Source: Spirochaetaceae bacterium (GTDB taxonomy: Bacteria; Spirochaetota; Spirochaetia; DSM-2461). From it: a DNA stretch of 64,000 nt. Every line of letters starts with the position of its first letter. The first letter of the stretch is position 1. A program made the translations under genes and the position numbers. The notes under the pieces were generated by a model. It was given only the letters and a program-made list of their open reading frames with translations, had not been told where the DNA came from and did no database searches. Shown here in pieces: positions 3,158 to 48,073 of the stretch. The stretch spans positions 1,696,001 through 1,760,000 of the forward strand of contig OZ245056.1 in assembly GCA_965224705.1 (NCBI GenBank). The letters run 5' to 3'.

Positions 3158-3563
3158 ATGAGGCAATTCGGGGTGCATAGAACTTCCAGCACGAAACCAG
3201 CACAGCATTGAGAATAAACCCCGCAGTACTCGATTCATTCGCAAAAAAAAAGTTCAGTGTTGACAAAATTAGCAAAAAAACCCAAGATAGTGATTAGTTG
3301 TCCCAAAGTCCTGCCTCTGTGGAGACTGACTTTGGAATTTCTTATGGGATAAGGAGGTAATGCAGCACTTATTTGAATCACCACTCAAACCTGGAAATTC
3401 AAATAAGTTGTTTACATCGCCTTGAAACAATGAGGGAGCCCGCCGTTCCTCACTCAGGTTCGCGGGACGGCAGGAGGGTGTGTTCAACCCCGCCCTTCTG
3501 ATCGCAGCGGAAGCAGGCGGTTCGTCTGCTGTCAGTATTTCATATAATATAAGGAATGAAACA

Positions 3564-6500: not shown

Positions 6501-9500
6501 GACGGAGTCATTACTGTCAACACAGCAACTAACTTTACAGAAACCGTTTACACCGTTACCGCGACCGGGAAAGGGAACTATGACGGTTCCATAACCGGGG
6601 ACATTAGCATAACGGTAACAGCGGATGATGTAGGACCTGGAAAGCCCGGCAACTTTGGCGTCAGTACGGAGAGCAATGGGGGTGTCAAGCTCACCTGGGC
6701 TGAACCTACAGATAAAGGTATATACAACAATACGACAGCAACAATCACAGGTTACACAATCTATTATTCGACAAGCTCTACCTTCACAAAGGGCAATGCG
6801 GAGACTACAATACCTGATTTGGATTCAGCGCTCACCAGCCACACAATCACGTCCGGGCTGACTGCCGGTACGCAGTATTACTTCCTCATGACGGCGACGA
6901 ACGGACATGGTGAGGGCGGGGTAACGGACACGTTATCGACGTATACGAATAGCGCCCCAGGAGCGCCCGCCCTAACGCTGGCAACGACCAGCACCGGGGT
7001 CAGCGTAGACTGGAATGTCTCGGATCTGGGATATTACGAGGGCAAGGATGCGGCGCTAACCGGAATCGATATCTATTATGCCAATCAATCAAACGTCAGC
7101 ACGAGCGGTACCCCTGTGTCAGTTTCAACGAGTAGCGCGACGGGCTCAGAGAATATAGATATTGCTGATCCTGGCGTGAAGTATTACTTCATCGCGACGG
7201 CCACGAATGGAGCTGCTACGGGCAGTCCGACGAGCCCGGCAGTATCGGTGACTCTAGATAAGGCGCCGGGAGCCCCCACCGGCTTCTCCGCCACTGGTGG
7301 AACTACTGAAGTTACGCTCAACTGGGACGTGCCTTCTGATCTGGGATATAAGGATAACGCGGAGGGGTCGATAACGAGTTACCATATCTACTACAAGGAG
7401 GGTTCCAGCGTCTCAACGACAGATTCTACTGGCACTGCAACAGCGGCTTCGACTGATAGATCGAAGACAATAAGTAGTCTCACTGCCGGCACACAGTATG
7501 CCTTCATCATGACGGCGGAAACTGGCGCTGGCGTGGGTGCGGCTACGACTGTAAAGACAGTGTATACGAATGCTGCCCCTGGAGCGCCTACTCTTATCTC
7601 CGTAACAGGGGGGGATGAAGAAGCCACGCTTGTCTGGACTGCGCCAAGTGATAAGGGCTATTCAGGCGGTTCAACAGCAACGCTCTCAGGCTACTATATC
7701 TATTACTCGACGACTTCTGGCTTTAATAAGGCTACGAGTGGAGTTACGAAGTCCGGCCTCCTAGGTGTGGGTGCCAGCCCTCATACAATTACTGGACTTA
7801 CTACTGCCGGTACACAGTATTACTTCCTCGTGACGGCGGCGAACGCTGCTGACGAGGGTACGGCGTCGAATGAGGAGTCGACGTATACGGATGGCGGCCC
7901 AGGAGCGCCCACCCTAACGGTGACAGCGACCAGCACTGGGGTCAGCGTAGGCTGGACCGTCTCGGATCCGGGATATTCGGGGGGATCGGCGGCATCAGTA
8001 ACCGGAATCGATATCTATTATGCCGATCAAACAGGCGTCACCACCACGAGCGGCGGAGCCCATGTGTCAGTTTCAACGACTAGCGCGACGGGCACAGAGG
8101 CTATAACTATTGATGATCCTGGCGTGGAGTATTACTTCATCGCGACGGCCACGACTGGAGCTGGTACGAGTGTGGGGAGTACGGAGGCATCGGTGATTCT
8201 TAATAAGGCGCCGGGAGCCCCCGCCAGCTTCACCGCCACGGGTGGAGATGAAGAAGTTACACTCAACTGGGCCGCACCTTCTGATCTGGGTTATGTGAAT
8301 GGCTCGGAGGGATCGATAACGAGTTACGCTATCTATTACAAGGCGGGTTCCAGCGTCACAACGTCAGATTATGATACTGTGACAACAGCGATTTTGACTG
8401 CAACATCGAAGACAATAACCGGTCTTAGTGCCGGCACGCTGTATCACTTCATCATGACGGCGTCTAACGGTCATGCTGAGAGCGCGCCAACGGACGAAAG
8501 GGCGACACATACGGATACTGTCCCTGAGAAACCTACCGGTGTTTCACTATCGGGCGGAGATCAACGGGTTACATTAACATGGACCGCACCTGGTAATACG
8601 GGCTATGTAGGCGGTTCAGCAGGAACGCTCACAGGTTACAATATTTACTATTCGCAGAACTCCGGCGTTACTGTTGAAAATGGAACTAAGCACGAAGTCA
8701 ACTCGGGGACTGCCACCATGCAGGAAATCTCCAACCTTGCTCCCAATACGCAGTATTACTTCATCATAACGGCGAAGACTGCTGCCGGTGAGAGTTTGCC
8801 GACAACTGCGGAAACATTCACAATCTCCCCGGCATTCAGCTCCGGTGAAGTAACCATGGACGTCAATGAAATAATAACCAGGGTGGGCACGGCCGCAAGC
8901 GAGCAGGTTACCTTTGGAGGCTCTCTCACAGCGGGTACGCACTACACCCTGTCCTTGCAGCGTCCTCAGGGCGCCAGCTCTTCGGTCACCATAAACGACG
9001 CCACAGGACTCATAACTGTAGCCAACACGGTAGCCGCCGCCGATGGCGGACAATACACTGTCATCGCAGCGGGATCAGGCGGCCAAAAACTCTCCGCGGC
9101 GTTTACTTTGACGCTTTACGATACCGATCTGGCGGGTCTCCTGCTGAACGGTGAAAGGATTCCGGCTGACTTGAGCAACTCCGACGCATTCACCCAGGCC
9201 ATACTTGCAGACTACAATGCCGACGCGACCATGACGGCCTTCTATGTCACCGAGAACGGTGCCGGAAGCAAAGATGGTTCTTCCTGGGCCAACGCCATCG
9301 CCGGGACTGGCCTGCGAAGCGAGCTTCAGAGTCCGGCCGGCGATGCGGACAACATACACTTCATCCTGGTTGGCGCCGGTACCTACAAACCGACGAAGCA
9401 AATGATGATGCGGAGCCACGCTGCCATCATCGGCGGCTGGCCGGCTTCGGGCGGCTGGATCCGCGGCGGCGCTGAGACCATCTTTGATGGAGAGAAGCAG

Positions 9501-10793
9501 AGGCGATTGTTCTATAACAGTATCCCCCTGACTAACGCCAAGCTCTATGGGGCGGTTATTCAGAATGGCAGTTACTCTACAGCAAATGGGGGAGCGGTGT
9601 TCAGCATGAGTTCAACTACCGCGTTTATCGACGTGCGCTTCCTCAATAACACCTCAGGAAGTAATGGCGGAGCTGTATACGACAGAGACGGTACTGTTAA
9701 GTTTTCTAATGTTACATTCGACGGCAATACTTCCACTGTCGCTACCACTGGTTCCGTCGGCGGCGGAGCTCTCTACACTGACACTTCAAGTGCCGAACTC
9801 ACCGACGTGGTATTTAAAAACAATAAAGCCCATGCTTACGGTGGGGGCCACTATAGCCTTAACGCATCTCTTGAGTACAGCCGAGTGCAATTCCTGAACA
9901 ATGAATCCGGCCTGTCTAAAGAGGGGGACGGCGGGGGTTTATTCGTGAGAAGTGGTACTAATGTTAAGCTTTCTCATGTAATATTTGATGGCAACAACAC
10001 AGCCAAAGGTAATGGCGGGGGAGCCAGCATTTGGACTGCTACCGGGACCTCATTATCCCATGTGACTTTCAAGAATAATACGATTCTATCCTACCAAAAT
10101 GGTGGAGGATTGTATGCCTGGGAGTCAGACTTCAGCGTTTCTCATGCGACATTTTCTGGAAATTCGGGGAGGGGTTCCGCGATTGGAACAAAGAAGTCCA
10201 CGTATGAGCTCAACCAGATGACAATCACGGAGAATGATGGCGATGCGGTAATATTCTATGGCGAAGACTCAAACGCGGTGATTACCAACACCCTCATCTG
10301 GGGGAACACAGCCACAATAGGAGGAGGTGTAGAAGTTGCGCCCGCGTTCTGGTTAGAACCCAAGGCCAACACGACGGATGTTTTGACGATTTACAACAGT
10401 TTATGGGAGGAGGGCATCAGGGAGTATGGTGGTGTTAAAGGTTTCTATTTATGGGGCGGCAGCGGCTCCGCCGTAACCCTTACCCAAGCCAGCAATATCA
10501 TTACCGACGGGACTGAGGCTGCAGTGCTCGGCAGCTTGATGACCACCGGCGACGAATACCTCATGACTTATCCCCTGACCACAGGCAGTCTGGCCCAGAA
10601 CGCGGGCATCTATGTCCAGCGGGGGACGGACGGTACCTATTACTACAGTGGTGATAACTCGAATTGGTTCGAAGAACCGGGACTTACCACTTCCGTTACG
10701 CTGCCCAGCGGCACGGAGGAACTGACGGCGAAGGATGTTCCGGGGAATAACCGCAACGGTGTCCCCGACATCGGTGCCTACGAACTGCAATAG
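3564..10793 (+). CDS. Giant surface lipoprotein/adhesin (~2409 aa): Ig-like repeats, FN3 repeats, Pmp-like beta-helix, C-terminal DIGAYE motif
   Basis: ATG at 3564 follows AAGGA and gives lipoprotein signal MLKTVLKSLAFFSILFLMAC. Tandem 'DSADSVTxDITLP..TTVTWES..VTRP..VTLTATI' repeats, FN3 motifs (P..P, W..P, Y.IYY, L..GTQY.F), GGA[VL]/FxxN repeats and terminal 'PDIGAYELQ' follow. Confidence 0.85.
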   Translation: MLKTVLKSLAFFSILFLMACPSPVVDTGDADAVASAKAALTIGYKAADGYYPTADSADSVTADITLPSTGTGGTTVTWESSKASVIGTDGSVTRPASGAGDETITLTATISKGNAEDTREFTLIVKQKTAADVDIDTAESNLAISYAGTDAADSVTEDITLPTLGSEDTTVTWESDNEAIVIQNGQATVNRPLSSAADAEVTLTATISKQGGRSITKTFTLTVKKNADAAGDNLAAAKAALVIDYAGSDTADAVTEDITLPDTGEHDSTITWESGDTNIISDAGIVTRGDFADGEGHEQVTLTATITIAPSSVTKSFTLTVLEEDPSDQQAVNTAKADLSVSYAAGDSQKVVTANFELPAKGKYDTDIAWNSDNTAIEISQTPSNGFYTATVTRPDLTTGDVSVILKATISRGTTEETRQFFPTVEASGKPEITGSIAYVIQATTYGTGTTTPVDAQGLDGRKDLAYALVKDVPGITVNEANGELEIGVGVQAGEHSITVELRSSDTTGTLEWSGTITVEKKLLTGESLTYPALTTVRGADSGNMASPLAGFLAGGDNLADVVDFAIAKTGTGGSGTDSDVSISTDGVVTVETDIEITATEYTVTATAKTDGSYADFTTGTITVTVGTPSIDGEFDHSIPTSITYGEGATYSVESNTVTGESVTFALENPVTGITVASNGEITVAADLDAGTHSITVKATALDLLGTVTKSYTITIDPKSISAASLTYAPLTVDRDASTGNTVTPTLTSLTDLLVSGDSLTDAVSFSIAKTGTSGTGTDGAVSVDDNGVVTAITSTVFTATEYTVTATGKGNYAGSPTGTITVTVNTPAMSGDFDYDIPDSITYGDGPTYGISTNNIATTQGLTFALETSVPGITVAPGDGTITVDENLAVADYDITVKATSADFTGEISQDETISVQKKSITGTLGYTALTLAVNAQDNTSTSPTVNFLVGGDALADAVDFTIAKKSGPGPAAGSIAADGVITVNTATNFTETVYTVTATGKGNYDGSITGDISITVTADDVGPGKPGNFGVSTESNGGVKLTWAEPTDKGIYNNTTATITGYTIYYSTSSTFTKGNAETTIPDLDSALTSHTITSGLTAGTQYYFLMTATNGHGEGGVTDTLSTYTNSAPGAPALTLATTSTGVSVDWNVSDLGYYEGKDAALTGIDIYYANQSNVSTSGTPVSVSTSSATGSENIDIADPGVKYYFIATATNGAATGSPTSPAVSVTLDKAPGAPTGFSATGGTTEVTLNWDVPSDLGYKDNAEGSITSYHIYYKEGSSVSTTDSTGTATAASTDRSKTISSLTAGTQYAFIMTAETGAGVGAATTVKTVYTNAAPGAPTLISVTGGDEEATLVWTAPSDKGYSGGSTATLSGYYIYYSTTSGFNKATSGVTKSGLLGVGASPHTITGLTTAGTQYYFLVTAANAADEGTASNEESTYTDGGPGAPTLTVTATSTGVSVGWTVSDPGYSGGSAASVTGIDIYYADQTGVTTTSGGAHVSVSTTSATGTEAITIDDPGVEYYFIATATTGAGTSVGSTEASVILNKAPGAPASFTATGGDEEVTLNWAAPSDLGYVNGSEGSITSYAIYYKAGSSVTTSDYDTVTTAILTATSKTITGLSAGTLYHFIMTASNGHAESAPTDERATHTDTVPEKPTGVSLSGGDQRVTLTWTAPGNTGYVGGSAGTLTGYNIYYSQNSGVTVENGTKHEVNSGTATMQEISNLAPNTQYYFIITAKTAAGESLPTTAETFTISPAFSSGEVTMDVNEIITRVGTAASEQVTFGGSLTAGTHYTLSLQRPQGASSSVTINDATGLITVANTVAAADGGQYTVIAAGSGGQKLSAAFTLTLYDTDLAGLLLNGERIPADLSNSDAFTQAILADYNADATMTAFYVTENGAGSKDGSSWANAIAGTGLRSELQSPAGDADNIHFILVGAGTYKPTKQMMMRSHAAIIGGWPASGGWIRGGAETIFDGEKQRRLFYNSIPLTNAKLYGAVIQNGSYSTANGGAVFSMSSTTAFIDVRFLNNTSGSNGGAVYDRDGTVKFSNVTFDGNTSTVATTGSVGGGALYTDTSSAELTDVVFKNNKAHAYGGGHYSLNASLEYSRVQFLNNESGLSKEGDGGGLFVRSGTNVKLSHVIFDGNNTAKGNGGGASIWTATGTSLSHVTFKNNTILSYQNGGGLYAWESDFSVSHATFSGNSGRGSAIGTKKSTYELNQMTITENDGDAVIFYGEDSNAVITNTLIWGNTATIGGGVEVAPAFWLEPKANTTDVLTIYNSLWEEGIREYGGVKGFYLWGGSGSAVTLTQASNIITDGTEAAVLGSLMTTGDEYLMTYPLTTGSLAQNAGIYVQRGTDGTYYYSGDNSNWFEEPGLTTSVTLPSGTEELTAKDVPGNNRNGVPDIGAYELQ

Positions 10794-20509: not shown

Positions 20510-20599
20510 CCTGAAAAGATTATCATCTACGGGGTGGGCTTCCGCGGTAAGACACTGGCTCTGGAGGCAAGAGAGGGGGCGCTTCGCGCCCAGTTCTGA
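20510..20599 (+). pseudogene. 3'-terminal remnant of an AAA-ATPase/PD-(D/E)XK gene
   Basis: Encodes PEKIIIYGVGFRGKTLALEAREGALRAQF*, matching the C-termini of the four downstream genes. Confidence 0.85.
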
Positions 20600-20777
20600 G
20601 TTGACCCGCATACGGCGTTAAAAGCCGCTTTTCACAAAGTGCATGGGGGATTCTCAAGGGGGACACCCCCTTGAGTCGTATTTTTCTTTGTTAAACTTTC
20701 TTTTTGTCGAAAAAAAAGAAAGTTTAGGCCCAGCGGCCCGAGCGACACCCACAAAACCATGCTATGCTAAAGACGTC
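20600..20777 (+). repeat. Array-1 intergenic spacer, copy 1 (others at 22530-22708, 24488-24680, 26463-26644; split copy at 28418-28700)
   Basis: Near-identical ~180-bp units containing CTCAAGGGGG-loop-CCCCCTTGAG and TAAACTTTCTTTTT-loop-AAAAAGAAAGTTTA hairpins. Confidence 0.92.
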
Positions 20778-22529
20778 ATGAAAAAGAATCTGACTCAGGG
20801 CATCACCGATTTCAAGGAATTCATCGACAATGATTGCTACTTTGTCGATAAAACCCATCTCATAGCGCATCTTATCAATGACCCCAGTAAGGTGCATCTC
20901 ATCACCCGCCCCCGCCGTTTCGGCAAAACCCTGAACCTCAGCATGATCCGCTACTTCTTCGAGGCACCCCCACCGGGCGGCGGCAGCGGCGCCGTGCCGC
21001 CCAATGCTGTGCTGTTCAATGACATGTCCATATCAAAACACCCCCGATGCCGCGAGTACATGGGCCAATATCCGGTGATACATTTAAGCTTCAAGAACGT
21101 AAAAAAATCGAATCATGAAGATTGCATGGCACTTATCAAAGATATGCTCTCCGATGAATTCCGTAGACATCAATACTTGCAAAACTCCGGTATGTTGGAT
21201 GATGCTGATCAAGAATGTTTTATCAGAATGCTGCAAAGAAAAGGTGCCGATCAGGATTGTGCCCAATCCATAAAACACCTCTCCTCCTGGCTCCATCGTG
21301 CCTACGGCAAACCGGTCTACATCCTTCTGGACGAGTACGACACCCCGCTGCACGCCGCCTATACCGACAGTTTTTATGATGAAATGATTGCCTTCATCCG
21401 CAGCTTCATGGTGCAGAGCTTCAAGGACAACCCCAATTTGAAACAGGCGGTGGTCATCGGGATACTCAAAGTGGCCCAGGAAAGCATCTTTAGCGACTTC
21501 AATAACCCGGCGGTGTCCACCGTGCTGAGCGACGCCATGAAGGATTGCTTTGGCTTCACGGAACCCGAAGTGGAAGAAATGGCCGCCTATTTCGGGCAGG
21601 AGTCCAGACTGGACGGCATTCGTCAATGGTACAACGGCTACATCTTCGGCGGCGACACGGTTATCTACAATCCCTGGAGTCTTGTGAGCTATTTCAGAAA
21701 CATCAAGGACGGACTTCTGCCCTACTGGGTGCACACCAGTGCCAACAGGATGGTTAAGGAAACGCTGCAGCTGAACAAAAGGGACAGCCGGGAAACCATG
21801 GAGAGGCTGCTCAGGGGAGAGGAGGTCAGACGGGAGGTGGCACTCAACATCGTCTACCCGCAGATCCGAACCCGCCCGGATGTGGCATGGAGTTTCCTTC
21901 TCCACGGCGGTTATCTCAAGGCCAGCGAAAGGCGGCAGCACGAGTTCAGCCAGGACTACCGGCTGGAAATTCCCAACCGGGAGGTGCGCTATTCCTACAT
22001 GACCACAATCAAGGATTGGCTGGAGGAAGATATGGAGGCAGGCGAATCCTTTCATTTCTTCATCCGCGGCATCAGGGAGGGAAATGCCGCCCTGATCGAG
22101 AGGGGTCTGGGGAAGGTTCTCCTGAGCATGGCCAGTTATTATGACACCGCTGGCGAAGACGAAGAAATGGAGCGGGTGGAGGGCTTCTACCACGGCCTGG
22201 TTCTGGGAATGCTGGCCTACCTGAGCGGCGAGTACACGGTGGAGAGCAACCGGGAATGCGGCATGGGCCGCCCCGACATCGTATTGATTCAACGCGGCTC
22301 CGGGCGGCCGGGTCATATTCTGCTGTTCGAGTTCAAACGGGAACCTGCCGCCGGAACCACGCCGCTCAAGCAGCTGGCGCAGGAGGCCTATGCCCAGGCG
22401 GAGCAAAAATACCTGGAGGGGGCGCAGGAGAAGTGGAACCCGGAAAAGATTATCATTTACGGGGTGGGCTTTCGCGGTAAGGCACTGGCTCTGGAGGCAG
22501 GCGGAGGGACGCTTCGCCCCCAGTTCTGA
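20778..22529 (+). CDS. AAA-ATPase-like / PD-(D/E)XK nuclease protein, copy A
   Basis: Walker A RPRRFGKT, Walker B ILLDEYD, WYNGY, IYNPWS and C-terminal SNRE..GRPDI..LFEFK. Start assigned by alignment with the paralogues (MKKNLTQG). Confidence 0.9.
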   Translation: MKKNLTQGITDFKEFIDNDCYFVDKTHLIAHLINDPSKVHLITRPRRFGKTLNLSMIRYFFEAPPPGGGSGAVPPNAVLFNDMSISKHPRCREYMGQYPVIHLSFKNVKKSNHEDCMALIKDMLSDEFRRHQYLQNSGMLDDADQECFIRMLQRKGADQDCAQSIKHLSSWLHRAYGKPVYILLDEYDTPLHAAYTDSFYDEMIAFIRSFMVQSFKDNPNLKQAVVIGILKVAQESIFSDFNNPAVSTVLSDAMKDCFGFTEPEVEEMAAYFGQESRLDGIRQWYNGYIFGGDTVIYNPWSLVSYFRNIKDGLLPYWVHTSANRMVKETLQLNKRDSRETMERLLRGEEVRREVALNIVYPQIRTRPDVAWSFLLHGGYLKASERRQHEFSQDYRLEIPNREVRYSYMTTIKDWLEEDMEAGESFHFFIRGIREGNAALIERGLGKVLLSMASYYDTAGEDEEMERVEGFYHGLVLGMLAYLSGEYTVESNRECGMGRPDIVLIQRGSGRPGHILLFEFKREPAAGTTPLKQLAQEAYAQAEQKYLEGAQEKWNPEKIIIYGVGFRGKALALEAGGGTLRPQF

Positions 22530-22708
22530 GTTGACCCGCATACGGCGTAAAAAGCCGCTTTTCACAAAGCACATGGGGGATTCTCAAGGGGGCCACCCCC
22601 TTGAGTCGTATTTTTCTTTGTTAAACTTTCTTTTTGTCGAAAAAAAAGAAAGTTTAGGCCCAGCGGCCCGAGCGACCACTCACAAAACCATGCTATGCTA
22701 AAGACACC

Positions 22709-24487
22709 ATGAAAAAGAATCTGACTCAGGGCATCACCGATTTCAAGAAATTCATCGACAATGATTGCTACTTTGTCGATAAAACCCATCTCATAGCATA
22801 TCTTATCAATGACCCCAGCGAAGTGCACCTCATTACCCGCCCCCGGCGCTTCGGTAAAACCCTGAACCTGAGCATGATCCGCTACTTCTTCGAGGCCCCG
22901 CCACTGCACGGCGACCGCGGCGTTAGCAGCGAAGCCTCCACCGAAGAGCCGCCCAATGCGCCCTTGTTCAATGACATGTCCATATCAAAACACCCCCGAT
23001 GCCGCGAATACATGGGCCAATATCCGGTGATACACTTAAGCTTCAAGGACGTGAAAAAATCGAATCATGAAGATTGCATGGCACTCATCAAGGATATGCT
23101 CTCCGATGAATTCCGTAGACATCAATACTTGCAAAACTCCGGCATGTTGGATGACAGGGAACGGACAAAATTTGAAAAAATTCTGTACGATGAGGGCACG
23201 GATCAGGATTGTGCCCAATCCATAAAACACCTCTCCGCCTGGCTCCATCGCGCCTACAACAAACCGGTCTACATCCTTCTGGACGAGTACGACACCCCGC
23301 TGCACGCCGCCTACACCGACAACTTCTACGATGAAATGATTGCCTTCATCCGCAGCTTCATGGTGCAGAGCTTCAAGGACAACCCCAATTTGAAGCAGGC
23401 GGTGGTCATCGGCATACTCAAAGTGGCTCAGGAGAGCATCTTCAGCGACTTCAATAACCCGGCGGTGTCCACCGTGCTGAGCGACGCCATGAAGGATTGC
23501 TTTGGCTTCACGGAACCCGAAGTGGAAGAAATGGCCGCCTATTTTGGGCAGGAGTCCAGACTGGACGGCATTCGTCAATGGTACAACGGCTACATCTTCG
23601 GCGGCGACACGGTCATCTACAATCCCTGGAGTCTCGTGAGCTATTTCAGAAATATCAAGGACGGATTTCTGCCCTACTGGGTGCACACCAGTGCCAACAG
23701 GATGGTCAAGGAAACGCTGCAGCTGAACAAAAGGGACAGCCGGGAAACCATGGAGAGGCTGCTTAAGGGAGAGGAGGTCAGGCGGGAGGTGGCGGTCAAC
23801 ATCGTCTATCCGCAGATACGAACCCGCCCGGATGTGGCATGGAGTTTCCTGCTCCACGGCGGCTACCTGAAGGCCAGCGAAAGGCGGCAGCACGAGATAA
23901 GCCAGGACTACCGGCTGGAAATTCCCAACCGCGAGGTACGCTATTCCTACATGACCACAATCAAGGACTGGCTGGAGGAGGATGTGGAGGCGGGCGAGTC
24001 CTTTCATTCCTTTATCCGCGGCATCAGGGAAGGGGACGCGACCCTGATAGCGGAGGGTCTTGGGGAAATTCTCCTGGGCCTTGCCAGCTTCCACGATACC
24101 GCCTCCCAGGGCGAAAAAGAAGAAAAGAAGCGGGTGGAGGGCTTCTACCACGGCCTGGTTCTGGGGATGCTGGCCTACCTGAGCGGCGAGTACACGGTGG
24201 AGAGCAACCGGGAATGCGGCATGGGCCGCCCCGACATCGTATTGATTCAACGTTGCTCTGGGCGACCCGGTCATGTTCTGCTGTTCGAGTTCAAACGGGA
24301 ACCTGCCGCCGGAACCACGCCGCTCAAGCAGCTGGCACAGGAGGCCCATACCCAGGCGGAGCAAAAATACCTGAAGGGGGCGCGGGAAAAGTGGAACCCG
24401 GAAAAGATTGTCATCTACGGTGTGGGCTTTCGCGGCAAGGCACTGGCTCTGGAAGCAGACGAGGGGGTGCTTCGCACCCAGTCCTGA
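22709..24487 (+). CDS. AAA-ATPase-like / PD-(D/E)XK nuclease protein, copy B
   Basis: Same motifs as copy A; intact 592-aa ORF. Confidence 0.9.
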   Translation: MKKNLTQGITDFKKFIDNDCYFVDKTHLIAYLINDPSEVHLITRPRRFGKTLNLSMIRYFFEAPPLHGDRGVSSEASTEEPPNAPLFNDMSISKHPRCREYMGQYPVIHLSFKDVKKSNHEDCMALIKDMLSDEFRRHQYLQNSGMLDDRERTKFEKILYDEGTDQDCAQSIKHLSAWLHRAYNKPVYILLDEYDTPLHAAYTDNFYDEMIAFIRSFMVQSFKDNPNLKQAVVIGILKVAQESIFSDFNNPAVSTVLSDAMKDCFGFTEPEVEEMAAYFGQESRLDGIRQWYNGYIFGGDTVIYNPWSLVSYFRNIKDGFLPYWVHTSANRMVKETLQLNKRDSRETMERLLKGEEVRREVAVNIVYPQIRTRPDVAWSFLLHGGYLKASERRQHEISQDYRLEIPNREVRYSYMTTIKDWLEEDVEAGESFHSFIRGIREGDATLIAEGLGEILLGLASFHDTASQGEKEEKKRVEGFYHGLVLGMLAYLSGEYTVESNRECGMGRPDIVLIQRCSGRPGHVLLFEFKREPAAGTTPLKQLAQEAHTQAEQKYLKGAREKWNPEKIVIYGVGFRGKALALEADEGVLRTQS

Positions 24488-24680
24488 GTACAAAGTTCTG
24501 AGTTGGCCCGCATACGGCATAAAAAGCCGCTTTTTACAGAGCGCAGGGGGGATTCTCAAGGGGGACACCCCCTTGAGTCGTATTTTTCTTTGTTAAACTT
24601 TCTTTTTGTCGAAAAAAAAGAAAGTTTAGGCCCAGCGGCCCGAGCGACCACTCACAAAACCATGCTATGCTAAAGACACC

Positions 24681-26462
24681 ATGAAAAAGAATCTGACTCA
24701 GGGCATCACCGATTTCAAGAAATTCATCGACAATGATTGCTACTTTGTCGATAAAACCCATCTCATAGCATATCTTATCAATGACCCAAGCGAAGTGCAT
24801 CTCATCACCCGCCCCCGCCGCTTCGGTAAAACCCTGAACCTGAGCATGATCCGCTACTTCTTTGAAGCCCTGCCGCCGGGCGGCAACAGCGGCGTTAGCA
24901 GCGAAGCCTCCACCGAAGAGCCGCCCAATGCCTCATTGTTTAATGACATGTCCATATCAAAACACCCCCGATGCCGCGAATACATGGGCCAATATCCGGT
25001 GATACACTTAAGTTTCAAGAACGTGAAAAATTCGAATTATGAAGATTGCATGGCACTTATCAAAGATATGCTCTCCGATGAATTCCGTAGACATCAATAC
25101 TTGCAAAACTCCGGTATGTTGGATGATGCTGATCAAGAATGTTTTATCAGGATGCTGCAAAGAAAAGGTGCCGATCAGGATTGTGCCCAATCCATAAAAC
25201 ACCTCTCCTCCTGGCTCCATCATGCCTACGGCAAACCGGTCTACATTCTTCTGGACGAGTACGACACCCCGCTGCACGCCGCCTACACCGACAACTTCTA
25301 CGATGCAATGATCGCCTTCATCCGCAGCTTCATGGTGCAGAGCTTCAAGGACAACCCCAATTTGAAGCAGGCGGTGGTCATCGGCATACTCAAAGTGGCC
25401 CAGGAGAGCATTTTCAGTGACTTCAATAACCCCAGGGTGTCCACCCTCATGGATCCAGCAATGAAGAATTGCTTCGGCTTCACGGAACCCGAAGTGGAGG
25501 CCATGGCGGACTACTACGGACTAGGGGACAGGATGGACGGCATCAGGGAATGGTACAACGGTTACATCTTCGGCGGGGACACAGTCATCTACAATCCCTG
25601 GAGCATCATCAACTACCTAAGCGCTCCGGAGGCCGGACTGCGGCCCTACTGGGTGCACACCAGTGCCAACAGGATGGTCAAGGAAACGCTGCAGCTGAAC
25701 AAAAGGGACAGCCGGGAAACCATGGAAAGGCTGCTCAGAGGAGAGGAAGTCAGGCGTGAGGTGGCACTCAACATCGTCTATCCGCAGATACGAACCCGTC
25801 CGGATGTGGCGTGGAGTTTCCTTCTCCACGGCGGCTACCTGAAGGCCAGCGAAAGACGGCAGCACGAGATAAGCCAGGACTACCGGCTGGAAATTCCCAA
25901 CCGGGAGGTGCGCTATTCCTACATGACCACAATCAAGGATTGGCTGGAGGAGGATATGGAGGCCGGTGAATCCTTTCATTTCTTCATCCGCGGTATCAGG
26001 GAAGGGGATGCCACCCTGATCGAGAGAGGTCTGGGGAAGGTTCTCCTGAGCATGGCCAGTTATTACGACACCGCTGATACCGACGACGACGACGAGGAAA
26101 TGGAGCGAGTGGAGGGCTTCTACCACGGTCTGGTTCTGGGAATGCTGGCCTACCTGAGCGGCGAGTACACGGTGGAGAGCAACCGGGAATGCGGCATGGG
26201 CCGCCCCGACATCATATTGATTCAACGCGGCTCCGGGCGGCCGGGTCATATTCTGCTGTTCGAGTTCAAACGGGAGCCTGCCGCCGGAACTACACCGCTC
26301 AAGCAGCTGGCACAGGAGGCCTATTCCCAGGCGGAGAAGAAATACCTGGAGGGGGCACAGGAGAAGTGGAACCCGGAGAAGATTGTCATCTACGGGGTGG
26401 GCTTTCGCGGCAAGACACTGGCTCTGGAGGCAGGCGGAGGGACGCTTCGCGCCCAGTTCTGA
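24681..26462 (+). CDS. AAA-ATPase-like / PD-(D/E)XK nuclease protein, copy C
   Basis: Same motifs as copy A; intact 593-aa ORF. Confidence 0.9.
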   Translation: MKKNLTQGITDFKKFIDNDCYFVDKTHLIAYLINDPSEVHLITRPRRFGKTLNLSMIRYFFEALPPGGNSGVSSEASTEEPPNASLFNDMSISKHPRCREYMGQYPVIHLSFKNVKNSNYEDCMALIKDMLSDEFRRHQYLQNSGMLDDADQECFIRMLQRKGADQDCAQSIKHLSSWLHHAYGKPVYILLDEYDTPLHAAYTDNFYDAMIAFIRSFMVQSFKDNPNLKQAVVIGILKVAQESIFSDFNNPRVSTLMDPAMKNCFGFTEPEVEAMADYYGLGDRMDGIREWYNGYIFGGDTVIYNPWSIINYLSAPEAGLRPYWVHTSANRMVKETLQLNKRDSRETMERLLRGEEVRREVALNIVYPQIRTRPDVAWSFLLHGGYLKASERRQHEISQDYRLEIPNREVRYSYMTTIKDWLEEDMEAGESFHFFIRGIREGDATLIERGLGKVLLSMASYYDTADTDDDDEEMERVEGFYHGLVLGMLAYLSGEYTVESNRECGMGRPDIILIQRGSGRPGHILLFEFKREPAAGTTPLKQLAQEAYSQAEKKYLEGAQEKWNPEKIVIYGVGFRGKTLALEAGGGTLRAQF

Positions 26463-26644
26463 GTTGACCCGCATACGGCGTTAAAAAAGCCGCTTTTCAC
26501 AAAGTGCATGGGGGATTCTCAAGGGGGTGCCCCCCTTTGAGTCGTATTTTTCTTTGTTAAACTTTCTTTTTGTCGAAAAAAAAGAAAGTTTAGGCCCAGC
26601 GGCCCGAGCGACCACTCACAAAACCATGCTATGCTAAAGACGTC

Positions 26645-28417
26645 ATGAAAAAGAATCTGACTCAGGGCATCACCGATTTCAAGGAATTCATCGACAATGA
26701 TTGCTACTTTGTCGATAAAACCCGTCTCCTAGCGCATCTTATCAATGACCCCAGCAAGGTTCATCTCATCACCCGCCCCCGCCGCTTCGGTAAAACCCTG
26801 AACCTCAGCATGATCCGCTACTTCTTCGAGGCCCTGCCGCCGGGCGGCAACAGCGGCGTTAGCGGCGATGCCCCCTCCGAAGAGCCGCCCAATGTCTCAT
26901 TGTTCAATGACATGTCCATATCAAAACACCCCCGATGCCGCGAATACATGGGCCAATATCCGGTGATACACTTAAGTTTCAAGAACGTGAAAAAATCGAA
27001 TCATGAAGATTGCATGACACTTATCAAGGATATGCTCTCCGATGAATTCCGTAGACATCAATACTTGCAAAACTCCGGCATGTTGGAAGACAGGGAACGG
27101 ACAAAATTTGAAAAAATTCTGTACGATGAGGGCACGGATCAGGATTGTGCCCAATCCATAAAACACCTCTCCGCCTGGCTCCATTGTGCCTACGGTAAAC
27201 CGGTCTACATCCTTCTGGACGAGTACGACACCCCGCTGCACGCCGCCTACGCCGACAAATTCTACGATGAGATGATCGCCTTCATCCGCAGCTTCATGGT
27301 ACAGAGCTTCAAGGACAACCCCAATTTGAAGCAGGCGGTGGTCATCGGCATACTCAAAGTGGCCCAGGAGAGCATCTTCAGCGACTTCAACAATCCGGCA
27401 GTGTCCACCCTGCTCGATCCCGAAATGGAGGACTGTTTCGGCTTCACGGAACCCGAAGTGGAGGCCATGGCGGACTACTATGGGCTTGGGGACAGGATGG
27501 ACGGCATCAGGAAATGGTACAACGGCTACATCTTCGGCGGGGACACGATCATCTACAATCCCTGGAGCATAGTCAATTACCTCAGGAGACCATCGGCCGG
27601 ACTGCGCCCCTACTGGGTGCACACCAGTGCCAACAGGATGGTCAAGGAAACGCTGCAGCTGAACAAAAGAGACAGCCGGGAAACCATGGAGAGGCTGCTC
27701 AGGGGAGAGGAGGTCAGACGGGAGGTGGCACTCAACATCGTCTACCCGCAGATACGGACCCGCCCGGATGTGGCATGGAGTTTCCTGCTCCACGGCGGCT
27801 ACTTGAAAGCCAGCGAAAGGCGGCAGCACGAGTTCAGCCAGGACTACCGGCTGGAAATTCCCAACCGGGAGGTGCGCTATTCCTACATGACCACAATCAA
27901 AGACTGGCTGGAGGAGGATGTGGAGGCGGGCGAGTCCTTTCATTTCTTCATCCGCGGCATCAGGGAAGGGGATGCCGCCCTGATCGAGAGGGGTCTGGGG
28001 AAGGTTCTTTTGAGCATGGCCAGTTATTATGACACCACTGGCGAAGACGAGGAAATGGAGCGGGTGGAGGGCTTCTACCACGGACTGGTACTGGGGATGC
28101 TTGCCTACCTGAGTGGCGAGTACACGGTGGAGAGCAACCGGGAATGCGGCATGGGCCGCCCCGACATCGTATTGATTCAGCGCAGCTCCGGGCGGCCCGC
28201 CCATGTTCTGCTGTTCGAGTTCAAACGGGAGCCTCCCGCCGGAACCACGCCGCTCAAGCAGCTGGCGCAGGAGGCCTATTCCCAGGCGGAGCAAAAATAC
28301 CTGAAGGGGGCACAGGAGAAGTGGAACCCGGAGAAGATTGTCATCTACGGGGTGGGCTTTCGCGGCAAGGCACTGGCATTGGAAGCAAGCGGAGGGGCGC
28401 TTCGCGCCCAGTTCTGA
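26645..28417 (+). CDS. AAA-ATPase-like / PD-(D/E)XK nuclease protein, copy D
   Basis: Same motifs as copy A; intact 590-aa ORF. Confidence 0.9.
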   Translation: MKKNLTQGITDFKEFIDNDCYFVDKTRLLAHLINDPSKVHLITRPRRFGKTLNLSMIRYFFEALPPGGNSGVSGDAPSEEPPNVSLFNDMSISKHPRCREYMGQYPVIHLSFKNVKKSNHEDCMTLIKDMLSDEFRRHQYLQNSGMLEDRERTKFEKILYDEGTDQDCAQSIKHLSAWLHCAYGKPVYILLDEYDTPLHAAYADKFYDEMIAFIRSFMVQSFKDNPNLKQAVVIGILKVAQESIFSDFNNPAVSTLLDPEMEDCFGFTEPEVEAMADYYGLGDRMDGIRKWYNGYIFGGDTIIYNPWSIVNYLRRPSAGLRPYWVHTSANRMVKETLQLNKRDSRETMERLLRGEEVRREVALNIVYPQIRTRPDVAWSFLLHGGYLKASERRQHEFSQDYRLEIPNREVRYSYMTTIKDWLEEDVEAGESFHFFIRGIREGDAALIERGLGKVLLSMASYYDTTGEDEEMERVEGFYHGLVLGMLAYLSGEYTVESNRECGMGRPDIVLIQRSSGRPAHVLLFEFKREPPAGTTPLKQLAQEAYSQAEQKYLKGAQEKWNPEKIVIYGVGFRGKALALEASGGALRAQF

Positions 28418-28826
28418 GTTGGCCTACATACGGCGTTGAAAAAGCCCCTTGAAATTTTCAAGTATATGTATCGTCCAGCGCTTTCAAGCGGGTTTACCGT
28501 CTCTAAAAAAGCCATGGAGGAATTTTTTAGAAGTTCCATTAAGAACCAAATCCTACGCCCTGAATTAAGTCCCCCCGAAATTTTGGGGGGGCGCGGAGCG
28601 AAGGGGGATTCTCAAGGGGGCCCCCCCTTGAGTCGTATTTTTCTTTGTTAAACTTTCTTTTTGTCGAAAAAAAGAAAGTTTAGGCCCAGCGGCCTGAGCG
28701 ATATTGAAGAAAGAACCTTTTGGCCATAGAATACGTGCATTATGTCATATTTCAGACCTAAGCGCACTGCAAAGAAATATCTGTTGCCGACCGGTATATT
28801 CATTGTGTACCTAAGCGGTTGCCAGG

Positions 28827-44436: not shown

Positions 44437-46194
44437 CTAATCCGCAACACTCGGCTGATTCTCGTGCGTCAGGGCCAGTTCCTTTCCCCGGAAACTCACA
44501 CCCAGTGCCAGACATCGTTTGGGATGCCACCTGGCCATTGCGCTGTCCCGGTATTTCTCCACGGCCTGGGCCAGAGCCTCGCGGGATAGCTGCTCCAGCG
44601 GGGTTTGGCCGCCTGCGTCCTCGTGCTTCAGCTCAAACAGAACAAGCTCATCACTCCAGCCCTCACCAGCGGTGCGCCGAACCAGAAGGATGTCGGCCCG
44701 CCCGGTGCCGTACTCCCGGTTGCTCTCTACCAGGTACTCTCCCCCAAGATAGGCCAGAAGACCCAGAAGTAATCCGTGGTAGAACATTTCCCCACTCTTC
44801 CTTCTACCCTTCCCGGTGCCCGCCATGTCGTGAAAGCTGGTCAGTGCCCGTAGCATCGCTCTCAGGCTCATTTCAATCAGACGGGGATTCATCTCTCGAA
44901 CGCCTCCGATAAAGGCCAGAAAATCCTCTCTGGCCTGAAACTCGTCATCCAGCCAGGTCTTGATAATCTTGTTGTAGACATAATGCACCTCCTTGTTGGG
45001 TATCGACAGACAATAATCCTGGCTGTATTCATGCTGCTGCCGGTCGGCGGCCTTCAAGTAGCCGCTGTGGAGGAGGAAGCTCCACACCGCATCGGGGTTT
45101 TTCTCTATCTCCGGGTAGGCAATATGGGGGTATACTTCTTTTCTTACCTCCTTGTTCCTCAGCAGGCGGGATACGATTTCGATTGATTCATGTTTTTCCA
45201 GATGGAGGGTTTCGCGCACCAGTCTGTTGTCGCTGGTATGCACCCAGTAGGGCCGCAGGCCATCTTCGGGCGCGCTTAAATAGTTGATGATGCTCCAGGG
45301 GTTGTAGATAACCGTGTCGCCGCCGAAAACATAGCCGTTGTACCAGTTTCGGATGCCGTCCATCTCGCCCTCCAGTCCGAAATGGGATGCCATGTTCTTC
45401 ACCTCATCCTCGGTGAATCCAAAGCAGTCCTTCATGGCCGAATTAAGCAGAGTTGACACCTTGGGATTGTTGAAGTCGCTGAATATACTCTCCTGGGCCA
45501 CTTTGAGTATGCCGACGACCACCGCCTGTTTCAGGTTGGGGTTGTCCTTGAAGCTCTGCGCCATGAAGCTTCGGATGAAGGCGATCATCTCCCTGTAATA
45601 CTCCTCCATGTAGGCGGTCATCAGAGGGGTGTCGTATTCGTCCAGAAGGATGTAGGCCGGTTTGCCAAAGGCGCGCTTTAGCCAGAAGGAGAGGTATTTG
45701 ATGGATTGGGCGCAGTCATTGTCGCTGCTGTTTCTGTTCAATACTCTGGAAAACAGTTCTTTATCGGCTTCGCGCAGCACTCCGCAATTTTGTAAATACT
45801 CATGCCGCTGGTATTCCATAGAGAGCATATTCCTGATGATCTCCATGCACTCATTGAATGATGCCCCTTTGGCATCCTTGAAACTCAAATGTATCACCGG
45901 ATACTGTCCCATGTATTCGCCGCACCGGGAGTGTTCCGTGATGGACATGCCGTCGAAAAGGGAGGCGTTGGGCGGCGCGTCAGTGCTGCTTCCGCCCGGC
46001 GGCAGGGCCTCAAAGAAATAGCGGATCATGCTTAAGTTCAGGGTTTTGCCGAAGCGGCGGGGGCGGGTGATGAGGTGCACCTTGCTGGGGTCATTGATAA
46101 AATGCGCTATGAGATGGGTTTTATCGACAAAGTAGCAATCATTGTCGATGAATTCCTTAAAATCGGTGATGCCCTGAGTGAGATTCTTTTTCAT
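44437..46194 (-). CDS. AAA-ATPase-like / PD-(D/E)XK nuclease protein, copy E
   Basis: RPRRFGKT, LLDEYD and SNREYGTGRADI..LFELK motifs. Confidence 0.9.
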   Translation of the reverse strand: MKKNLTQGITDFKEFIDNDCYFVDKTHLIAHFINDPSKVHLITRPRRFGKTLNLSMIRYFFEALPPGGSSTDAPPNASLFDGMSITEHSRCGEYMGQYPVIHLSFKDAKGASFNECMEIIRNMLSMEYQRHEYLQNCGVLREADKELFSRVLNRNSSDNDCAQSIKYLSFWLKRAFGKPAYILLDEYDTPLMTAYMEEYYREMIAFIRSFMAQSFKDNPNLKQAVVVGILKVAQESIFSDFNNPKVSTLLNSAMKDCFGFTEDEVKNMASHFGLEGEMDGIRNWYNGYVFGGDTVIYNPWSIINYLSAPEDGLRPYWVHTSDNRLVRETLHLEKHESIEIVSRLLRNKEVRKEVYPHIAYPEIEKNPDAVWSFLLHSGYLKAADRQQHEYSQDYCLSIPNKEVHYVYNKIIKTWLDDEFQAREDFLAFIGGVREMNPRLIEMSLRAMLRALTSFHDMAGTGKGRRKSGEMFYHGLLLGLLAYLGGEYLVESNREYGTGRADILLVRRTAGEGWSDELVLFELKHEDAGGQTPLEQLSREALAQAVEKYRDSAMARWHPKRCLALGVSFRGKELALTHENQPSVAD

Positions 46195-46327: not shown

Positions 46328-48073
46328 TCAATCATAAAAAACCGCCAGTTCCCTGCCCCTAAACCCTACCCCCAGAACAAGCAGCCGCTGCGGATGCCAT
46401 TTGTTCCTTACTCCGTCCATGTACTTCGTTACCGCCTGGGTATGGGCTTCACGGGCTAAATCTTCCAGGGCTTTGCCGTCCTTCGCTGTTCCATGTTTGA
46501 ATTCCAGCAGAACGGCTTCCTCGGCCTGGGCCGGATTGTTTCCCTTCTTGAGTACCACGATGTCCGGGCGGCCCTCACCATATTCCCGGTTGCTCTCAAC
46601 GGTATACGCCGGGCTCAGGCAGGCCAGAAGTCCCAGTACCAGACCGTGGTAGAAGTTTTCCCGTCTGGATTCCTCGTCTTCCCCCTCCTCTTTGCTCCTG
46701 GCCGTATCATGGTAGCTGGCCAAACCGCGAAGAATGCGGGATAGTCCCCGTTCTATGTGCCGGGGACTGGCTTCCTGGATGCCGGTGACGAAGTCCGTGA
46801 AGTGTTCGTTTATTTTTATGTCTTCCTTTAGCCAGCGGGAAATAACGGTAATCCAGGCGGTTTCCACCTCCAGGTTGGGAATGGCGAGCCGCCATGTTAT
46901 GTCCCTGTGTTCCTGCCGCCTCTCGGAGGCCTTCAGGTAGCCGCTGTGGAGTAAAAAGCTCCATACTACGTCCGGGTCGCTTTCCACCTGAGGGTAGGGA
47001 ATGTTGGTCAGCAGGGGTTTGCGGACTTCCTCCTTCCGCAGGAGTTTTTCTATGGTCATCTTGGCTTCCCGGCGGTCTAATTGGATGACATCCTTGATCA
47101 GTCTGTTGTCGCTGGTGCCTATCCAGTGGGTCATCAACCCTTCCTCGGGTGAACGCAGATAGTTGACGATGCTCCATGGGTTGTAGATGACGGTGTCCCC
47201 GCCGAAGAGGTAGCCGTTGTACCATTCTTTTATGCCATCCATTTCGTCTTTCAGTCCAAAGTAAGCGGCCATTGCCTCCACTTCCGCTTCGGTGAAACCA
47301 AAGCAGTCCTTCATGGCCGAGGAAAGGATGGTAGACACACTGGGATTGTTGAAGTCGCTGAATATACTTTCCTGGGCAACTTTCAATATGCCGATCACCA
47401 CGGCCTGTTTCAGGTGGGGGTTGTCCTTGAAGGTCTGCACCATGAAGCTGCGGATGAAGGTGATCATCTGATCGTAGTAGTTGTCCAGATGGGCCGAATG
47501 CAGGGGCGTATCGTACTCGTCGAGAAGGATGTAGGGTGGTTTGCCGTAGACGCGCTTTAGCCAGAAGGAGAGGTATTTGATGGATTGGGCGCAGTCGTTG
47601 TTGGTACTGTTTCTGTTCAATACTCTGGAAAACAGTTCTTTATCGGCCTCGCGCAGCACTCCGCAATTTTGTAAGTATTCATGCCGCTGGTATTCCATAG
47701 AGAGCATATCCCTGATTATTTCCATGCACTCATTGAATGATGCCCCCTTGGCATCCTTAAAGCTCAAATGTATCACCGGATACTGTCCCATGTATTCGCG
47801 GCACCGGGGGTGTTCCGTGATGGACATGCCGTCGAAAAGGGAGGCATTGGGCGGTGCGTCAGTGCTGCTACCGCCCGGCGGCGGGGCCTCAAAGAAGTAG
47901 CGTATCATGCTTAAATTCAAGGTTTTGCCGAAGCGCCGGGGCCGTGTGATAAGATGTACCTTGCTGAGGTCATTGATAAAATGTGCTATGAGATGGGTTT
48001 TATCGACAAAGTAGCAATCATTGTCGATGAATTCCTTAAAATCGGTGATGCCCTGAGTCAGATTCTTTTCCAT
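46328..48073 (-). CDS. AAA-ATPase-like / PD-(D/E)XK nuclease protein, copy F
   Basis: RPRRFGKT, LLDEYD and SNREYGEGRPDI..LLEFK motifs. Confidence 0.9.
   Translation of the reverse strand: MEKNLTQGITDFKEFIDNDCYFVDKTHLIAHFINDLSKVHLITRPRRFGKTLNLSMIRYFFEAPPPGGSSTDAPPNASLFDGMSITEHPRCREYMGQYPVIHLSFKDAKGASFNECMEIIRDMLSMEYQRHEYLQNCGVLREADKELFSRVLNRNSTNNDCAQSIKYLSFWLKRVYGKPPYILLDEYDTPLHSAHLDNYYDQMITFIRSFMVQTFKDNPHLKQAVVIGILKVAQESIFSDFNNPSVSTILSSAMKDCFGFTEAEVEAMAAYFGLKDEMDGIKEWYNGYLFGGDTVIYNPWSIVNYLRSPEEGLMTHWIGTSDNRLIKDVIQLDRREAKMTIEKLLRKEEVRKPLLTNIPYPQVESDPDVVWSFLLHSGYLKASERRQEHRDITWRLAIPNLEVETAWITVISRWLKEDIKINEHFTDFVTGIQEASPRHIERGLSRILRGLASYHDTARSKEEGEDEESRRENFYHGLVLGLLACLSPAYTVESNREYGEGRPDIVVLKKGNNPAQAEEAVLLEFKHGTAKDGKALEDLAREAHTQAVTKYMDGVRNKWHPQRLLVLGVGFRGRELAVFYD

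Follow-up and report, generated by a model that had tools for sequence, protein, structure and literature searches.

Mosaic DUF1703 ATPase-nuclease genes in a Spirochaetaceae genome: reassorted, charge-paired modules and a possible role in self-assembly

How four neighbouring genes come to share their sequence blocks in all three possible pairings, and what such shuffling might serve, is the question raised by a tandem array in a Spirochaetaceae bacterium (GenBank assembly GCA_965224705.1, contig OZ245056.1). The array lies in a window of 64,000 nucleotides, by which we mean the whole stretch of DNA analysed (positions 1,696,001 to 1,760,000 of the forward strand), and coordinates below are those of the window unless a genome locus is named. 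It consists of four genes on the + strand, A (20778..22529, 583 amino acids), B (22709..24487, 592 amino acids), C (24681..26462, 593 amino acids) and D (26645..28417, 590 amino acids), bracketed by glnS and a ribokinase-family gene. All four score above the Pfam cut-offs for PF09820 (AAA-ATPase_like, 150-158 bits) and PF08011 (PDDEXK_9, 43-47 bits), and are members of DUF1703, a family defined as AAA+ plus PD-(D/E)XK (PMC1913061). We hypothesize that A to D, four of 44 intact paralogues in this genome, are mosaics of old, charge-paired modules that act as lock-and-key assembly surfaces, a reading to which we give an even chance of being right.

The repeat units of the array share 89-92% DNA identity, and the alignment of A to D holds 102 informative sites, at which the pairing of the genes changes from block to block. 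A pattern joining A with D occupies nine consecutive informative sites (20640-20939), A joins C at 30 consecutive sites (21140-21285), and A joins B at 37 of 38 sites (21389-21718). Neighbouring sites show the same pattern 84 times, against 37.8 +/- 4.6 after permutation (runs test, p<1e-5). A preliminary description of this DNA had held that no single tree fits these splits, and the motifs it quoted are all found in the sequence; each of five block trees built from 16 close copies rejects the other four (approximately unbiased test, p<=0.002), and a test resembling the pairwise homoplasy index (PHI), of the kind it had proposed, is significant for A to D (p<1e-4). Its pairings need some amendment, however. 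The 5' block does group A with D against B with C, but AHL/AYL is not part of the fixed allele, because residue 31 shows recombination relative to both residue 14 and residue 38. In the central block A and B go together as described, whereas C and D do not; they are alike only in a middle stretch and differ outside it, so that there are three alleles (that of A and B, RVSTLMDPAMK..SAPEAG in C and AVSTLLDPEMED..RRPSAG in D). Nor is the allele ascribed to B alone private to that gene, as it occurs in three other close copies elsewhere in the genome.

Discrete alleles are indeed reassorted between conserved anchors by homologous recombination, as had been proposed, but the exchange is genome-wide rather than limited to four neighbours. 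The source genome (G000), a single contig of 3.0 Mb that its FlaA marks as spirochaetal, carries 44 intact full-length DUF1703 copies at 22 scattered loci, amounting to 77.6 kb or 2.6% of the genome, and all 44 encode distinct proteins. Sixteen copies at six loci are at least 82% identical to A, and the window itself holds two intact paralogues of other subfamilies on the - strand (44437..46194, 65% to A; 46328..48073, 63% to A), both with E14/K38. The motifs given for the family in PMC1913061 are a Walker A RPRRFGK(T/S), a Walker B DEYD and the PD-(D/E)XK residues; R44, R46, R47, G49, K50, D185, E186, D188, E468, D500, E518 and K520 are kept in every one of the 44 copies.

The preliminary description had left the choice between gene conversion and unequal crossover. 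When 120-nt windows of the array genes are assigned to their nearest match, 34 of 56 point outside the array and 12 inside, with 10 ties, given 12 candidate copies outside and three inside, and non-reciprocal conversion is therefore favoured over unequal crossover. Codons 241-280 of D are identical to those of a copy 1.2 Mb away, while the longest identical run of any array gene to another copy is 162-272 nt. Gene A is 97% identical to a gene of another subfamily at codons 296-316 and 71% just downstream, and modules have passed from one subfamily to another even where the C-terminal halves share no more than 56-79% identity. Site incompatibility in the 16 close copies increases with distance, from 0.17 for sites 1-10 nt apart to about 0.5 for sites more than 200 nt apart (p=2e-4). 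Since the same block alleles are also found far away in the genome, in related species and in other assemblies, short-tract ectopic gene conversion acting across the genome is very probably the process at work. RecA is encoded in the genome and probably drives it. No dedicated recombinase is seen in the flanking open reading frames (ORFs), as the preliminary description had noted, although this was judged partly by eye and no genome-wide recombinase search was made; no inverted recombination sites were seen between the genes, with inverted repeats searched within 200 nt.

Two other mechanisms were considered and rejected. Adenine-specific mutation of the diversity-generating retroelement type does not fit, with 606 of 1070 pairwise differences involving A, 303 being C/T, and synonymous divergence held within the blocks; nor does silent-cassette antigenic variation, given 44 intact ORFs, most of them preceded by promoter-like -10 hexamers. 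Local duplication also occurs, since arrays in two relatives (G009, L011 1847-12781; G001, L014 1717-12591) each consist of six near-identical copies with alternating (ABAB) module alleles.

The variation is concentrated in four modules: M1 (residues 14/38; codons 14-38 in A, 20817..20891, +), a charge-swap pair; M2 (residues 107-170; 21096..21287 in A, +), with many alleles; M3 (residues 244-314; 21507..21719 in A, +), with three; and M4 (residues 436-466; LIAEGLGEILLGLASFHD..EKEEKKR in B, 24044..24134, +). Gene A combines E14/K38 and DADQEC with M3 type I and an M4 of basic helix with acidic loop; B has K14/E38, DRERTK, M3 type I and the reverse M4, an acidic helix with basic loop; C has K14/E38, DADQEC and M3 type III; and D has E14/K38, DRERTK and M3 type II. 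The proportion of synonymous differences (pS) is 0.38-0.58 in M2 to M4, outside short linkers, compared with 0.18-0.28 in most conserved parts, and its nonsynonymous counterpart relative to it (pN/pS) is 0.26-0.40 in all four modules. Judging from these substitutions, the modules are old alleles under purifying selection and not products of hypermutation; positive selection was rejected, as pN/pS is below 1 in all blocks. The nuclease domain is among the least variable parts.

Free reassortment between modules goes together with a locking of charges within them. In 58 sequences with A's backbone (two N-terminally truncated rows dropped), separate modules are unlinked pairwise (p 0.14-0.90). 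The pooled alignment excludes the proteins of genome G015, and 17 of 120 database matches were removed as identical to sequences already in the set; P0025, a duplicate of a G000 gene, was retained for the 14/38 database count and left out of the linkage, M3 and M4 counts. Of the 44 copies, 23 have E14/K38 and 21 have K14/E38, so that the two charges are opposite in all, and they are opposite in 100 of 101 database homologues having both residues. Between these two positions, 12 of 23 informative sites show all four gametes with site 14 in the 16 close copies. The coupling extends to 218 distant homologues, where 105 of 110 doubly charged 14/38 pairs are opposite and the pair ranks second in covariation family-wide. 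In M3, K255 occurs with acidic residues at 309-311 in 97 sequences and E255 without acid in 58, which makes 155 of 167 coupled, the remainder being eight exceptions and four with other residues at 255. In M4, 64 of 64 sequences have either a basic helix with an acidic loop or the reverse.

What the modules might do is suggested by the predicted structure. The AlphaFold model of A (predicted local distance difference test score, pLDDT, 91.9) matches PAB2304 best (2QEN; Z 18.2, root-mean-square deviation (rmsd) 3.9, 304 aligned), followed by SSO1545 (2FNA; Z 16.6, rmsd 4.1, 304 aligned), and scores Z 14-15 against the rings of NLR proteins and CED-4; the fold also resembles TnsC and Orc. Its C-terminal part scores Z 10-11 against the PD-(D/E)XK domains of Wolbachia CinB/CidB, a likeness of common fold only. 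The protein is thus predicted to be a STAND-type (signal transduction ATPase with numerous domains) ATPase, composed of nucleotide-binding domain (NBD), helical domain 1 (HD1) and winged-helix domain (WHD), with a C-terminal nuclease. It would be sensor-less, as neither the Pfam scan nor the predicted model shows a TPR, LRR or WD40 sensor, the chain being filled by ATPase, WHD, helices and nuclease. Judged by its secondary structure, the model has residue 14 in the helix preceding the NBD and residue 38 where strand 1 begins; M2 forms a helical insertion that follows ATPase strand 2, M3 covers strand 5 and HD1, and M4 is a helical region that precedes the nuclease. Solved structures of STAND rings show a segment on the N-terminal side of the NBD wedged between protomers, the rings being held together by NBD-NBD, HD1-WHD and beta2-alpha2-loop contacts (PMC10427625, PMC8813719). 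By analogy, three of the four modules appear to lie on elements that join subunits.

Taken together, these observations lead us to the proposal of assembly surfaces made at the outset. RecA would convert tracts some 100-300 bp long, with priming in the conserved anchors, and selection would weed out recombinants in which lock and key are separated. The protein would be an ATP-switched oligomer in which assembly activates the nuclease, and the modules would sort the many co-expressed paralogues into compatible classes; lock would be kept with key because both set which paralogues form a working nuclease. That the charge pairs themselves are an inter-subunit code, as the analogy with solved rings suggests, falls slightly short of an even chance. 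More tentatively still, DUF1703 proteins in general may be sensor-less STAND-nuclease rings with a combinatorial self-recognition code, written in four or more modules that reassort independently (one subfamily has 2 x ~7 x 3 x 2 alleles of them), maintained by balancing selection across subfamilies and species and redistributed by genome-wide conversion, such that the code picks the paralogues that co-assemble, and adjacent E/E and K/K genes form obligate alternating hetero-rings. If the code is true, it would show how a cell stops dozens of paralogous ATPase-nucleases from cross-assembling and would provide natural orthogonal interfaces in a STAND-like ring; A to D are a natural allelic series of near-identical proteins covering combinations for tests of assembly specificity.

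Several points weigh against such a role. Like charges are found at 14/38 in five of 21 copies of three relatives (G001, G009, G012), where they occur as E/E and K/K genes inside the same arrays, and those of G001 and G009 each contain such genes adjacent to one another; this fits cross-subunit contact, reciprocal crossover or weak constraint. The coupled residues may simply form salt bridges within a single chain, the N-loop of MalT also touches its own NBD (PMC10427625, PMC8813719), and the two halves of M4 are near enough for plain physical linkage. The 42 module combinations counted in the set with A's backbone are an inflated figure and the set is not independent, because the database sequences are 90%-cluster representatives of related strains. 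Neighbouring genes are not more different than expected by chance (M1 14/20 vs 11.0, p=0.13). Finally, the genome encodes MutS, which should hinder exchange between divergent copies.

Some of these points are shared by the alternative that survives best, one that we consider possible though unlikely, namely that conversion is neutral, the module variants functionally equal and the charge pairs intramolecular salt bridges. The low pN/pS in all blocks and the lack of excess difference between neighbours would be expected under it, and residues 14 and 38 covary also in distant homologues mostly without tandem copies. Covarying residue pairs are usually contacts inside one chain. Neutral exchange accounts less well for near-identical neighbours that differ mainly at the modules, where identity falls from 90-100% to 51-52%. 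Moreover, both M1 types persist in all eight multi-member backbones (at least five sequences each), near 50:50 in the three largest, whereas drift should fix one allele, and a subfamily of about 25% identity in G015 is also mosaic, in its N-terminus, insertion and winged-helix region.

It is less probable that the array serves diversified recognition in defence, each protein being a minimal sensor-nuclease of the Avs/NLR type with modules directed at different phage proteins or DNA sites. The STAND-like predicted fold with a nuclease, the 44 distinct proteins with intact catalytic motifs, and the position of the many-alleled M2 after strand 2 are in line with this, and in Orc1/Cdc6 a DNA-contacting helix follows strand 2. 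A table in PMC10952713 lists PF09820 with the domains of defence systems. By contrast, A and B, the two of the four genes run, match none of the PADLOC families, sensor repeats are lacking in Pfam scan and model, and there is no sign of rapid positive selection. The array sits between a ribokinase gene and glnS, and most other loci likewise have housekeeping-like flanks; internal charge complementarity would be unexpected on a surface for foreign ligands. Diversified specificity, as the preliminary description suggested, is plausible, but what is seen fits self-assembly better than target recognition.

Less probable again, and in our view doubtful, is a selfish spreading element, in which DNA cleavage by the nuclease would help the element to be copied and converted and the modules would keep the machinery of each copy private, a reading compatible with assembly surfaces. 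It would explain the 22 scattered loci, a fold like that of TnsC and Orc, and the patchy distribution: no copy lies within 1.5 kb of glnS in five of five relatives, and genomes of the genus have between 0 and 45 matches each. STAND-REase is said to have been described by Zhang et al. in 2016 as transposon-derived. PMC6387759 cites a report of a DUF1703 homologue in the MEDEA element. However, no terminal repeats or target duplications were identified (no systematic search was made), the 44 distinct proteins include no identical recent copies, and homologues are rare among plasmids (61 of 72,556 records) and phages (34 of 50,697 records). Lastly, a chimeric assembly of collapsed repeats, although read-level data are fragmented Logan contigs that leave the genes unphased (those of four runs all break inside the array, and array-skipping joints with short sides of 22-66 letters were unused), is hardly credible because each copy has 37-58 private sites, identical runs reach at most 272 nt in a genome that is one contig, and the same alleles occur in other combinations in other assemblies (some contigs 1.3 and 2.8 Mb), G001 and G009, nor would an assembler preserve charge pairing.

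The intergenic regions have features of their own. A palindromic repeat of about 100 bp stands before each gene and once past the array, ahead of glnS (20645..20744; 22575..22674, folding z = -4.8; 24546..24646; 26510..26610; 28603..28700, folding z = -4.9; all +). Its core has 25 matches genome-wide, nearly all adjoining DUF1703 genes and mainly the 16 close copies, and an Rfam search with the repeat gave no match. What is left of a fifth copy, its 3' end with codons ~555-583 and the stop, lies at 20510..20599 (+), and four further 3' remnants in the genome (G000:C1:506904, 507276, 1645887 and 2215453) have a common junction joining the palindromic repeat to gene nucleotide ~1536, either one deletion copied among loci or a hotspot. 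An extended -10-like motif, TGnTATGCT, is located 9 nt ahead of the ATG of A (20760..20768, +) and also before B, C and D. Across the 44 copies, a -10-like hexamer lies 5-9 nt upstream of the start in 36 and 10 nt in six more, and a Shine-Dalgarno-like word precedes the start in only one; it is therefore likely that every copy is transcribed from a promoter of its own, as a leaderless RNA. RNA contigs span the array, and per-copy expression is not resolvable from them.

Beyond this genome, DUF1703 matches are present in seven of the 31 genomes searched (G000 counted), with arrays in G001 and G009, and none was found in G007 (93% complete). The family as a whole comprises 14,633 cluster representatives at E<=0.001; near-identical tandem copies were seen at 0 of 80 distant loci, a count biased by fragmented assemblies. 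Searches with NCBIfam found no match, PDB sequence searches no significant match, and the Atlas search nothing beyond DUF1703 itself. An 83%-identical homologue (P0033) lies on a 2.1-kb contig labelled Candidatus Thiodiazotropha endolucinida, through misbinning or transfer, and a related strain is present in a mollusc metagenome run (X3). Directly upstream of the paralogue at 2213343, G000:C1:2208019-2212751 is presumably, from its motifs, a diversity-generating retroelement, with a caspase-like/FGE-sulfatase-like gene, an Avd-like ORF and a reverse transcriptase piece. At G000:C1:1449130-1450537 and 1652548-1653778, a transposase-like ORF of IS1380-like type splits one array, and a group II intron-like reverse transcriptase adjoins another. 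In G001, a tandem repeat of about four ~110-bp units lies upstream of glnS (L021 ~900-1400). Elsewhere in the window, a 2437-amino-acid protein (3480-10793, +) with matches to atrophied bacterial Ig, fibronectin III and beta-helix domains is likely a surface adhesin.

Segmental exchange between conserved anchors yields combinatorial mosaics in Borrelia vls, Treponema tprK and Neisseria pil. Here, by contrast, there is no sign of silent cassettes or of one expression site; all 44 copies are full-length and most are preceded by a promoter-like motif, the product seems to be cytoplasmic, and the alleles appear old and under purifying selection. Modular reassortment also occurs in shufflons and in type I restriction hsdS, the latter within a nuclease system; in our array no inverted sites are seen between genes in a search within 200 nt, no recombinase is seen in the flanking ORFs, and the nuclease domain is little variable. 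Compared with PAB2304 and SSO1545, NBD-HD1-WHD aligns over residues 3-409 of the A model, and an N-terminal segment likewise precedes the NBD. Identity to STAND, NLR, CED-4 and Avs proteins is 10-12%, and the present proteins differ in a Walker A of RPRRFGKT, the lack of LRR, TPR and WD40, a C-terminal nuclease and an oligomeric state that is putative.

The closest precedent lies within the family. In Cardinium cCpun, DUF1703 has expanded to 25 paralogues with intragenic recombination (RDP4, PHI) and no homogenisation, recombination was also reported for a midge Rickettsia, and the role of DUF1703 was called unclear in that 2019 paper (PMC6387759). The same two Pfam domains, multi-copy expansion, intragenic recombination and a host-associated bacterium make these cases alike. 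They differ in that the Cardinium paralogues average 39% identity, whereas 16 of the 44 intact copies here are at 82% or above, and a signal peptide is predicted for 10 of the 25 Cardinium paralogues but none is evident here by inspection. A modular charge code for DUF1703 was not found in the literature searched, which leaves most subscription papers and the supplements of PMC6387759 uncovered. If the code is false, our case reduces to the published recombination among DUF1703 paralogues. Neither the family nor this type of shuffling is new as such, because DUF1703 expansion and intragenic recombination are already published; section 14 of PMC6387759 does not describe the discrete modules, charge coupling, linkage equilibrium and cross-species alleles seen here, and the new part is the coupled modules, their linkage equilibrium and their predicted position on STAND assembly elements.

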